In this document: positions 6,001-9,000 of the stretch, piece after piece
Position numbering within the stretch: position 1 is the first letter of the stretch
How the letters are laid out: each line of letters opens with the position of its first letter
Source of the DNA: a virus
Lineage: Duplodnaviria; Heunggongvirae; Uroviricota; Caudoviricetes
DNA length: 13,180 nt
Virus record (IMG/VR): IMGVR_UViG_2703719368_000028
Direction: 5' to 3' (one strand)
Made by a program: the position numbers

Positions 6001-9000
6001 GATTGACGGTAAGGAGAAAATCCTGACCGTCGGAAAATATCCGCTTATGACTTTGCAAGAGGCAAGGGATAAAGCATGGACTGCGAGGAAAGACATCTCG
6101 GTTGGCATCGATCCGGTAAAGGCGAAAAAGGCTTCGTCTAACAACAATTCCTTTAGTGCGATTTACAAGGAATGGTACGAGCATAAGAGGCAAGTCTGGT
6201 CAGCCGCCTATGCGACTGAACTTGCAAAAATGTTTGATGACGACATTTTACCTATCATCGGCGGCCTTGAAATTCAGGATATTGAGCCGATGCAACTGCT
6301 GGAAGTAATCCGCAGATTTGAAGATCGCGGGGCAATGGAGCGAGCCAACAAAGCACGCAGAAGATGCGGCGAGGTTTTCCGTTACGCTATTGTCACCGGA
6401 AGGGCTAAATATAACCCGGCACCTGACCTTGCTGAAGCCATGAAGGGATACCGCAAGAAGAACTTCCCGTTTTTACCTGCCGACCAGATCCCGGCATTCA
6501 ACAAAGCACTTGCAACATTTTCAGGAAGTATCGTATCTCTCATTGCGACCAAAGTTTTACGCTACACAGCACTAAGAACGAAAGAGCTTCGTTCCATGCA
6601 ATGGAAGAACGTCGATTTTGAAAACAGGATTATCACCATCGAGGCCAGTGTGATGAAGGGACGCAAGATTCATGTGGTTCCGATGTCGGACCAGGTTGTT
6701 GAACTTCTCACTACGCTAAGCTCCATCACTAAACCAGTATCAGAGTTTGTTTTTGCCGGGCGCAACGATAAGAAGAAGTCAATCTGTGAGAACGCTGTAC
6801 TGCTTGTGATCAAACAAATCGGCTATGAAGGTCTGGAAAGCGGTCACGGATTCAGGCATGAATTCAGCACGATTATGAACGAGCACGAATGGCCTGCTGA
6901 CGCTATTGAAGTGCAACTAGCACATGCCAACGGCGGATCTGTGCGTGGGATTTACAACCATGCTCAGTATCTCGATAAGCGCAGAGAAATGATGCAGTGG
7001 TGGGCGGACTGGCTTGATGGGAAGGTGGAGTAGTTATTACAACGATTCTTATAAAAAAGAAAAGCCTTGCACATATATCAAAGCTTTTCACTTCTCAGGA
7101 TTTCTTACACCAAGAAACCATCAACAATAACAAAATGCAATTATTATATGTTAACTACATATGCATTTCATTAAAACCAATCATAAATGCTTATCATACT
7201 TTAATTGCTATAATTGATTGCCTTCTATTTTTTCAACTCGAGTGGTTGAAACATCATTCTTAAATCCACTCCACCATTTTCTTAGCTTATTGTTTATTGG
7301 CTTTTCAAAAAACAAATACATCATTATTGATATAAATAATGAAGCAAACAGAGCCATTACTATAAATTTAATTACACTTATAGCACCAAGACCAGAAACA
7401 TTAAAGAACTTGCTCAATGTACTGATTACTATAGTATGGACCAAGTAAAATGAAAAAGAAGCATCACCTAAAAGTATCATAACTTTATTTGATATTATTT
7501 TTGAAATAATACCACCATTAAACGAAAACACTAATATTGAAAAGGCCATTGATGGTATAAAAAGCGCATCATACTGTAATCCATTGCTATTTTGACTTTT
7601 TGCCACCATATAGACAGACATTAGGATAAAGACTACAGATGATATTTCAGCAAATGATAGAACTAAATATGACGGCTTTGACTTAAACTCAAAATCTCCG
7701 GCCTGATTGCTGCGGATTGTCTCTGCCAGCCTGCCTCGGTCAATCTCACGACCAGCCATCTTGTCCTGAACATTGAAGTAGTCAATCGGACCGAGAGCAG
7801 CCATCCCAAGGTGATAAACAAACTCACCAAACCCTGAAGGATTCTGCTGATACATCTGAGCAACGTTGTTAGGGTCAACACCGACGCGCGCCAGTTCCTT
7901 GGCGTTGTTTTGCAGCCATGATTGCATTGCTTCTGGAGACGAGGCCGCAAGGCGTGCGCCAGCCGCTAAGGTGCCGATAGAATTGCGCTGGTCTTCGTCT
8001 GCCCACTTCATACCAGACTGAATCTTCTCTAATTGACCAGGATATTTGGTCATCAGATCTCGAACCTGCTGTCGATCGCCGGACTGGATGGCTGCCGCAT
8101 ATTCTTTTTGGAATGCAGCATCCGCTTCCTGTTGCTTTGCGGCTTGAGATGTTTGAGCGACACTACCAAGTCCCTGCAACGCCTGAAGGCCGATGTTATT
8201 GCGACCTGAACGCTCCATTTCGTTGTTCTGGCGAATATAGGCCAACGCCTCACTTACATCACTTGCCTTTGGCGCATTTGAGTTTTGCCCACCGATACCA
8301 GCAAGAAAACCGCCTGAGTTGATTCCTTGTTGCCAAGTAGCCATATTCCCACCTTAAAACAATGATCCAAGACCACCGATAACACCGCCAGCAAGAGCAC
8401 CAATACCAGTCCCAATAACAGGAACTGCACTACCAATCATTGCACCTGATGCGGCCCCACCAATGGCACCTGTAGCAAAACTCTGTAGGCCTGAAGGCTT
8501 ATTCGCATTTGCTGCCGATGCTGCCGCCTGCTGTTGATACAATTGGCTGACATTGTTAGCGTAGTTCTGTCCGGCGTTTGCCTGACCTGTAAGAGCACCA
8601 AGGCCGATATTTGCCAGATTGTTGTAGTTGTTCATCTGACCTGACAGCCAGTTTTGACCGAGTGTAGGTGCGATTGCTGCTAACTGGTTTCCTGTTGCTG
8701 TAGAGCCTAATCCACCCGTTGCCTCTGCTGCTGCCAGACTCTGATAGCGCGCCTGCCCTGCAAGGTCTTTATACTGCTGAGAGTTGTAATACTGGTTAAG
8801 CGCCTGACCTTGCCCCTGAAGAGAGGAAAGATTCTGCAACTGTGATACGTACTGCTGAGCGAGTGGCGTGAACGGTGCAAGGTTTTGCATGTTCGTCTGC
8901 CACATTTCACGCTGCAGTTCGATGCCCTTTTCAGTTGCGCGTGCCTGGGCTTTAGATCCGGAGTCGCTGCCGCCTTTCATATACCCATTCATGGGAAGCA

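Follow-up and report, generated by a model that had tools for sequence, protein, structure and literature searches.

An ejection protein/acyltransferase fusion ORF in the Sp16 prophage remnant at argW, very probably left by one internal deletion in a P22-like prophage

The window, i.e. the whole stretch of viral DNA analyzed here (13,180 nucleotides; IMG/VR record IMGVR_UViG_2703719368_000028), contains an open reading frame that begins like a phage DNA ejection protein and ends like an acyltransferase. This raises the questions of how the two pieces came to share one frame and whether their product may still have a function. The ORF and its parts are located as follows:

7208-8344, minus strand: fusion ORF of 378 aa with an ATG start (ECs3232 of strain Sakai; prophage Sp16 at argW)
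7695..8344, minus strand: 5′ fragment of a gp20-type (P22) ejection protein gene, codons 1-217 of about 433, assigned by Pfam and identity
7694..7695, minus strand: putative deletion junction inside codon 217 (GA/T), from three-way DNA alignments
7208..7694, minus strand: 3′ fragment of an AT3 (PF01757) acyltransferase gene, fusion codons 218-378 plus stop

The Shine-Dalgarno-like sequence AAGGTGGG lies five bases upstream of the ATG. GC content amounts to 0.522 across 7695-8344 versus 0.294 across 7208-7694, a drop also visible in a sliding profile, and GC3 falls from 0.495 to 0.242. On the protein level, Q, A and G make up 0.36 of the N-terminal part versus 0.12 of the tail, and the fraction of I, L, F, V and M rises from 0.21 to 0.45, the tail containing four hydrophobic segments. 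Thus, the switch in DNA composition and protein type described in the original prediction is real, but it resides at codon 217/218 (between 7695 and 7694), about five codons upstream of the position given there (about codon 222, near 7680).

The N-terminal part was readily assigned. Residues 12-217 matched the Pfam family Inj_translocase (P22 gp20 family; PF16928) with 219.1 bits, the gathering cut-off being 29.7, and residues 1-217 were identical at 211 of 217 positions (97%) to residues 1-217 of the 433-aa gp20 of phage vB_EcoP-720R6, with about 95% identity of the DNA. In comparison with P22 gp20 and Sf6 gp12, these 217 residues are normal member sequence. However, those proteins are full-length (about 420-470 aa), whereas in the fusion the homology stops at residue 217 of 433, so that about 216 of 433 residues, the C-terminal half, have been lost, and so has the gp16 partner, no gene of which was found within the window or the annotated Sp16 region. 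Instead of a gp7-gp20-gp16 cassette, there is a gp7 gene upstream and a fusion ORF that abuts int and the acyltransferase fragment.

In the tail, residues 230-343 matched Acyl_transf_3 (PF01757; profile positions 215-325 of 326) with 25.9 bits, which is below the Pfam cut-off of 31 bits, as expected of a fragment. Its origin was fixed by its 99% sequence identity to an intact AT3 protein of 375 aa (P0152), encoded by 22 contigs: residues 218-378 of the fusion correspond to residues 215-375 of this protein with 160 of 161 residues matching. By sequence, the tail thus descends from an AT3 gene. In contig L024, one of the 22, the intact gene agreed with the tail DNA at 484 of 486 nt; one of the two differences is synonymous and one non-synonymous, too few for any dN/dS inference on selection. 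Furthermore, fusion residues 222-362 showed 38% identity (E 2e-33) to residues 220-360 of the O-acetyltransferase of phage TL-2011b, the sole match to the tail among phage GenBank records. The two matches dispose of the possibility that the C-terminal part is unlike acyltransferases. A HMMER search with the tail gave 1,267 matches at E ≤0.001. The best 150 of these included one full-length fusion representative (99% identical) and one 31-residue fragment, while the remaining 148 were at most 53% identical, the full-length proteins among them matching at their C-terminal end. The two closest intact proteins belong to Acyl_transf_3 along their whole length (85-88 bits over the whole profile). 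Against GTDB species representatives, the tail gave no match; the full-length acyltransferase retrieved relatives at no more than 41% identity, from Morganella and flavobacteria, and none closer. When a word-indexed protein database was searched with the tail alone, nothing but a 101-aa partial sequence came back; this reflects a sensitivity limit of the index and not absence; a later search with the intact acyltransferase listed dozens of near-identical 378-aa fusion clusters.

Aligned separately, the two halves therefore belong to two different natural families, and the proposed in-frame fusion at 7208-8344 is borne out. It is a real chimera of two parental genes, since the same junction was present with at least 99% identity in 309 of 5,426 complete E. 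coli genomes, all independently finished, which excludes chance or artefact. That the ORF represents a natural two-domain family, or an error of assembly or annotation, has practically no probability, even though PHROGs contains a family (phrog_28221, 378 positions) that matches the whole ORF and RefSeq annotates it as an ordinary CDS. All proteins combining PF16928 and PF01757 are from E. coli and at least 96% identical to each other, no diverged two-domain homologues were disclosed by the Pfam architecture search or among the best 150 HMMER matches of the tail, 148 of which do not exceed the 53% identity mentioned above, and phrog_28221 most likely holds the same fusion.

The surroundings of the ORF identify the element in which the chimera resides:

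5640..5714, plus strand: argW, tRNA-Arg(CCU), found by ARAGORN; chromosomal attachment side of the Sp16 remnant
5876..7033, plus strand: intS, prophage tyrosine integrase, 385 aa from the annotated ATG (RefSeq 'prophage integrase IntS')
7034..7207, minus strand: AT-rich spacer (GC 0.26) between the stops of the converging intS and fusion ORF, belonging to the acyltransferase module
8354..9034, minus strand: apparently intact gp7-type ejection protein gene (P22_gp7, 301 bits, profile 16-230 of 230)
9021..9491, minus strand: gp14-like (DUF2824) gene (Pfam DUF2824, 218 bits), positioned as gene 10 of Sf6
9488..10016, minus strand (ORF 9488-10057): 3′ fragment of a tail-needle gene, knob domain only (Phage_tail_NK, 1-175 of 175)

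The mechanical ORF call for intS begins at GTG 5840; its product contains the Pfam domains Phage_integrase, Phage_int_M and Arm-DNA-bind_3. On the minus strand, the truncated needle knob is followed by the gp14-like gene, gp7 and the fusion ORF, in agreement with the expected P22-like order (needle, gp14, gp7, gp20) and with the good start codon foreseen for the latter. The needle fragment is annotated in RefSeq as a pseudogene 'missing N-terminus' (the intact needle protein has 282 aa), and phage homology ends at 10016, indicating that the second truncation boundary of the Sp16 remnant lies nearby. P22-like head, lysis and replication genes were not detected within the window, and tailspike and head genes are absent from both the window and the annotated Sp16 region. 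For Sp16 of strain Sakai neither excision nor packaging has been observed (PMC2669165). The claim of a non-inducible prophage is thus correct but was already known, and it is explained by losses much larger than the fusion deletion, namely the truncated needle and the missing head, lysis and replication genes.

Intact relatives occupy the same chromosomal site in contigs L024, L025 and L026 from E. coli draft genomes and in the IMG/VR contig L011+L015 (IMGVR_UViG_2545824644_000015). Their order is needle, gp14, gp7, gp20, gp16, tailspike and the 375-aa AT3 acyltransferase, followed by convergent intS, argW and yfdC. L024 runs on into yfdC, mlaA, fadL and fadI, as do O157 strain 319 and Sakai, and in all three argW has the same placement relative to intS. 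These prophages share with the window the site, the integrase (about 96-97% identity), the 3′ part of the acyltransferase gene with the spacer (99.6%) and the late-gene order. Unlike the window, they possess gp20 in full (421-462 aa), together with gp16, a tailspike of 846 aa and the complete acyltransferase, and their gp20 and gp7 share only about 72-76% identity with those of the window. Homology to L024 comprises window 5640-7695 (L024 12695-10641) and window 7695-8903 (L024 4444-3245), which defines L024 4445-10640 as the segment missing from the window. BLAST end-points thus fell at 7695 from both sides, likewise with L011, and the spacer is covered by contiguous homology (window 5640-7695 with L024, 5876-7695 with L011). 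At the junction the fusion reads GGAGA/TTTTGAG, the intact acyltransferase gene CTATA/TTTTGAG and the gp20 gene GGAGA/AGCACT, leaving a microhomology of 1 nt (A). Mapping against intact colinear relatives thereby also supported the predicted loss of the rest of gp20, gp16, the tailspike gene and the 5′ part of the acyltransferase gene.

Since from either side the homology of the window to intact relatives reaches precisely to the junction and no further, a single deletion suffices. The parent would have been a P22-like (Lederbergvirus-type) prophage integrated at argW, with needle, gp14, gp7, gp20, gp16, variable cargo, tailspike and AT3 acyltransferase on the late strand, and then convergent intS and argW. 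One deletion by illegitimate recombination may have joined the interior of gp20 codon 217 to codon 214/215 of the acyltransferase gene, removing between about 6.2 kb (as measured on L024) and about 9.0 kb (on L011+L015). It probably used the single base of microhomology and would have preserved the reading frame by chance; as the tail is read in the original frame of the acyltransferase gene, the ORF continues to the native stop of that gene. Taken together, we regard it as very probable that the fusion ORF is the chimeric remnant of one internal deletion in a P22-like prophage at argW, and likely a neutral by-product of decay.

No single relative pairs a window-like gp20 (at least 95%) with this acyltransferase; in the relatives carrying the latter, identity in gp20 amounts to only about 74% across most of the fragment. 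The two sides might instead stem from two elements joined by illegitimate recombination, for example an incoming P22-like phage and a resident int-acyltransferase remnant at argW. This would fit the 90-95% identity of the side from gp20 to the needle to phages 720R6, Louie and Sf6, and the 97-99.6% identity of the int-acyltransferase side to L024/L011, whose late genes share only about 74% identity with the window. However, P22-like phages are mosaic, so that differing closest relatives of adjacent modules are the norm, and contig L014 has other cargo together with late genes (92%) and an intS (96%) like those of the window. Moreover, on either side of the junction the genes are ordered and oriented exactly as in a single intact prophage, so that one deletion is enough. 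We therefore consider an origin from two elements unlikely. Because no relative combines both modules, the exact parent of the deleted prophage was deduced via normal P22-like mosaicism.

Phage Sf6 (NC_005344), to which the original prediction had pointed, resembles the Sp16 remnant in integrating at argW by an IntS-type integrase, and its late genes, in the order needle, gp14, gp7, gp20, gp16 and tailspike, are about 90% DNA-identical to the window. It also carries an AT3 O-antigen acetylase gene (oac) between the tailspike gene and int. The parallel thus holds for the position of oac beside int and for the argW site, but it ends there: oac lies on the int strand, convergent with the tailspike gene, whereas the acyltransferase piece of the window shares the strand of the late genes and converges with int. 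Sf6 Oac (333 aa) has no BLASTP similarity to the tail (best E 0.28, over unrelated regions), common ground being Pfam family PF01757 only. Sf6 was therefore rejected as template of the deletion and its Oac as ortholog of the tail, which by sequence belongs to another AT3 lineage. The closest annotated phage-borne relative of the tail is gp49, the above O-acetyltransferase of Escherichia phage TL-2011b, an AT3-only protein of 368 aa encoded directly downstream of and co-directionally with a tail protein gene. It is full-length, comes from a phage not filed under the P22-like genus Lederbergvirus and is too distant for a parent. By family and position, the parental acyltransferase putatively modified the O-antigen.

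The hybrid almost certainly has neither parental activity. Intact P0152 contains the motifs R13-X10-H24, FFFILSG (residues 52-58) and R83-VF-R86, all before residue 215. Motifs of these kinds, including R/K-X10-H in TMH1 and RXXR, are essential in OafA and Oac (PMC7448272). A complete AT3 domain, with about 10 TMH and a score above the Pfam gathering value, is not present in the tail, and the fusion product is expected to be incapable as an acyltransferase because TMH1-6 with the R-X10-H, FFXISG-like and RXXR motifs were deleted. Nor should it work as gp20, since half of the protein is missing and neither the window nor the annotated Sp16 region contains gp16, tailspike or head genes. Should the ORF be translated, the retained TMH7-10 would most likely adopt their native topology in the membrane and tether the gp20 N-domain at the cytoplasmic face of the inner membrane.

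Could such a product have been retained as a useful neo-gene, its membrane-tethered gp20 N-domain excluding superinfecting P22-like phages or affecting the envelope? The ORF is intact with a good ribosome-binding site in all 309 genomes having the region, the adjacent gp7 and gp14-like genes are likewise open, and the fusion point just past the predicted TMH6 preserves the native topology of TMH7-10 (topology deduced from PMC7448272). Open frames in hundreds of genomes could reflect selection, but the lineage is too young and clonal to tell and would be expected to keep them without it. Only 2 nt, one of them synonymous, separate the tail from the intact gene, and variants circulate with a short or frameshifted C-terminus or lacking 4 aa of the first helix. 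Neither the late promoter nor its activator has survived, and a promoter and terminator scan of 6900-11400 gave counts no higher than in shuffled sequence. Finally, a cytoplasmic gp20 domain would miss the incoming ejectosome, which is periplasmic. Domestication is thus decidedly improbable. Very unlikely, too, is its more specific form, in which the chimera, expressed by read-through or from a cryptic promoter, inserts by its four AT3 helices and was kept in O55:H7/O157:H7 as an anti-ejection or envelope-altering factor. In this case the still intact gp7 and gp14-like genes would perhaps act alongside the tethered gp20 N-domain, and a defence gene would have been born of a prophage deletion. 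Full-text literature searches for ECs3232, and literature searches for Sp16 with 'P22-like' and Sakai, yielded no paper. Most likely, the fusion ORF is a neutral by-product of prophage decay.

The genomes listed among the 309 are O157:H7 or untyped, plus two of serotype O55:H7. In the complete E. coli genomes the AT-rich part occurred only in the fused form, and the 5′ part of the acyltransferase gene in none of the 5,426. Because both serotypes possess the same junction, the deletion probably predates the split of O157:H7 and O55:H7.

For annotation, the consequences are immediate. Public databases name the same 378-aa protein 'phage DNA ejection protein', 'phage DNA injection protein' or 'acyltransferase', and the chimera has most likely even given rise to a PHROG family of its own; we recommend marking it as a fusion or pseudogene, and ECs3232 should not serve as evidence for an O-antigen acetylase in O157. 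Sp16, earlier not assignable to a phage family, can be classed as a P22-like prophage at argW that has suffered at least two truncations. Beyond its value for annotation, pedigree and as a marker, the locus is a case of ordinary prophage decay, whose junction provides a clean marker common to O55:H7 and O157:H7.

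The 13,180-base window finds a match of 100% identity in the chromosome of E. coli ERL05-1306, a strain among the O157:H7 and O157 genomes listed as carrying the fusion region. The locus is organized around argW as follows:

4275-5519, minus strand, integrase of the Stx-type prophage
5640-5714, argW, tRNA-Arg(CCU)
7208-8344, minus strand, fusion ORF, 378 aa

In Sakai, the element right of argW is annotated as 'prophage Sp16; P22-like phage' and the fusion ORF as ECs3232, 'phage DNA injection protein' (RefSeq WP_000257010.1, 'phage DNA ejection protein'). The ORF starts with ATG, with AAGGTGGG five bases upstream, and three genes precede it in P22 order: the needle gene, truncated to its knob, the DUF2824/gp14-like gene and gp7. 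A promoter and terminator scan around the ORF disclosed no signals beyond chance level, and a full-text literature search for ECs3232 found no paper. Near-identical 378-aa copies (P0157-P0237) are variously named at NCBI ('phage DNA ejection protein', 'acyltransferase', 'hypothetical protein'), and the PHROGs family phrog_28221 (378 positions) is apparently composed of the chimera alone.

The original prediction of an ejection-protein N-terminus joined in frame to an acyltransferase C-terminus was confirmed. GC and GC3 drop from 0.522 and 0.495 (7695-8344) to 0.294 and 0.242 (7208-7694), and a Q/A/G-rich first part of the protein (0.36) gives way to a tail that is rich in I/L/F/V/M (0.45) and includes four hydrophobic segments. 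In Pfam, Inj_translocase (the P22 gp20 family) covers residues 12-217 with 219 bits, while residues 230-343 match the final third of the Acyl_transf_3 profile (positions 215-325 of 326) with 25.9 bits, a score under the cut-off of 31 bits, as is to be expected of a fragment. The abrupt switch had been placed at about codon 222; it lies slightly upstream, at codon 217/218. Of residues 1-217, 211 are shared with the N-terminus of gp20 (433 aa) from phage vB_EcoP-720R6, and at the DNA level the similarity to P22-like phages (720R6, Louie, Sf6 and others) begins abruptly at about 7695-7701.

When 1.84 billion representatives were searched exhaustively by HMMER with the tail as query, 1,267 matches reached E <= 0.001. 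The best was the fusion itself (99% identity); except for one 31-residue fragment, the remaining matches among those listed were at most 53% identical, and the full-length proteins among them (~350-400 aa) align to the tail by their C-terminal part. Acyl_transf_3 spans the whole length of P0003 and of TL-2011b gp49, the two intact proteins nearest to the tail. The closest annotated phage protein, the TL-2011b O-acetyltransferase, aligns by residues 220-360 of 368 with fusion residues 222-362 (38% identity, E 2e-33). The tail (residues 218-378) is nearly identical to the C-terminus of P0152, a 375-aa 'acyltransferase family protein [Escherichia coli]' present on 22 contigs examined (484/486 nt, 160/161 residues). 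The two halves align to the gp20 and AT3 families, respectively. Neither outcome that would have spoken against the fusion, one full-length family for both halves or a C-terminal part unlike acyltransferases, was seen.

By scanning IMG/VR with the tail, an intact relative was obtained. Contig IMGVR_UViG_2545824644_000015 matches window 5876-7695 at 96.9% identity, ending exactly at base 7695, and encodes gp16, a set of cargo genes, a P22-type tailspike of 846 aa, the intact acyltransferase (...ILCKLY/FEFKSKPSYLVLSF... at the junction point) and a convergent intS. The intact prophage L024 at argW harbors gp4, gp10, needle (282 aa), DUF2824, gp7, gp20 (462 aa), gp16 (665 aa), tailspike (846 aa) and acyltransferase (375 aa), followed by a convergent int and then yfdC, mlaA, fadL, fadI and fadJ, a chromosomal setting shared with O157 strain 319 and Sakai. 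BLAST located both sides of the junction on L024, and the nucleotide sequences of the three genes were compared (slash, junction):

Window 5640-7695, L024 12695-10641, 97.3% identity
Window 7695-8903, L024 4444-3245, 73.8% identity
Fusion, GGAGA/TTTTGAG
Intact acyltransferase gene, CTATA/TTTTGAG
gp20, GGAGA/AGCACT

The segment absent from the window therefore corresponds to about 6.2 kb of L024 (4445-10640). With the IMG/VR contig as reference, where gp16 and tailspike are separated by additional cargo, the deletion comes to about 9.0 kb. This cargo varies among the intact relatives (none in L024; an Arc/Mnt-like repressor and a small ORF in L026, 6407-7262; several ORFs of no known function, about 3 kb, in locus L011 of the contig, 1659-4972), so that the deletion size in the O157 ancestor is fixed no closer than about 6-9 kb. 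The microhomology at the junction amounts to one base, which is typical of illegitimate recombination.

Intact colinear relatives and homology ending at the junction on both sides strongly support a deletion as the origin of the fusion, and all genes proposed as lost (the rest of gp20, gp16, tailspike and the acyltransferase 5' part) are present in these relatives. Recombination between two elements would explain why the modules on the two junction sides have different closest relatives, but mosaicism accounts for this as well and a single deletion is enough; we consider such an exchange highly unlikely. Within the int-acyltransferase module, divergence from L024 is not uniform: the acyltransferase fragment is 99.6% identical to the intact gene (2/486 nt differ), while int, spacer and tRNA flank are about 96.6% identical, which points to recombination inside the module or to differing histories.

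The proposed position beside int at argW was borne out, whereas the suggested match to the oac layout of phage Sf6 held only in that oac adjoins int. In Sf6, oac lies on the int strand, convergent with the tailspike, and a deletion in such a layout could not yield an in-frame fusion. In the true parent, the acyltransferase gene was co-directional with the late operon, as also found in L024, in TL-2011b and for the 53%-identical relative P0003. Although Sf6 Oac and the tail have a Pfam family in common, BLASTP of the tail revealed no similarity to Sf6 Oac; with the opposite orientation, this led us to reject an oac ortholog. The parent remains a putative O-antigen modifier.

Of 5,426 complete E. 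coli genomes, 309 contain the AT-rich part (7034-7700), always in single copy and at >= 99% identity, and 309 genomes also cover at least 80% of 6900-8400, junction included, in one piece. None of the complete E. coli genomes searched contained the 5' portion of this acyltransferase gene. Fusion-carrying genomes listed are O157:H7 or untyped strains and two O55:H7 strains (RM12579, DEC5A). Proteins with both Pfam domains are all from E. coli and mutually at least 96% identical; this confinement indicates a single, lineage-specific event, which probably preceded the emergence of O157:H7 from O55:H7. Together with the 309 genomes and the HMMER matches, it also refutes a natural two-domain family or an artefact. 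Variants exist with a shortened C-terminus (361 aa, ending ...KWWSGF; the cluster of 109 sequences may include contig-end partials), a frameshifted C-terminus (391 aa) or a first retained helix shortened by a 4-aa deletion (374 aa); these variants (P0243, P0239, P0237) concern the 7208-7694 part.

Work on OafA and Oac showed that R/K-X10-H (TMH1), FFXISG (TMH2) and RXXR are either required for the activity of AT3 proteins or strongly conserved (PMC7448272). Intact P0152 contains R13-X10-H24, FFFILSG (residues 52-58) and R83-VF-R86, all N-terminal of residue 215. With all three motifs missing, the fusion cannot work as an acyltransferase, and its gp20 part is without the C-terminal half. In the AT3 model, the N-terminus and the loop after TMH10 are cytoplasmic (PMC7448272). 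With the junction just past the sixth predicted helix, the protein, if made, should hold TMH7-10 in native orientation and the gp20 domain on the cytoplasmic side. No positive evidence emerged for a selected neo-gene, which is highly unlikely. We concluded that the ORF is the product of ordinary, well-resolved prophage decay yielding an in-frame chimera, of little surprise to specialists yet of use for annotation and as a lineage marker.

That the prophage is non-inducible, as predicted, had already been established: Sp16 of Sakai showed neither excision nor DNA packaging in experiments (PMC2669165). The causes are larger than the present deletion. Neither gp16 nor the tailspike gene nor any head gene occurs in the window or in the annotated Sp16 region. 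Sp16 has a second truncation in the needle gene (9488-10057), which is itself cut at about 10016, where P22-like homology stops, and keeps only the knob domain. The adjoining 10017-13180 gave no megablast match among 50,697 phage records. ORFs 10040-10735 and 11405-12817 matched only PHROG families of unknown function, the former being labelled 'phage replication protein' in Sakai.

At the other end, window 1-5640 belongs to an Stx-converting prophage, of which it forms the integrase end. Its genes include an anti-repressor, an MT-A70 methylase and DUF1627, and over matching parts it shows 99.6% identity to Stx1 phage AU5Stx1 and 94% identity to Stx2a_F451. It lies directly 5' of argW, which places the tRNA gene between two integrase-bearing elements. 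At least 80% of the window is present in only 8 of the 5,426 complete E. coli genomes.
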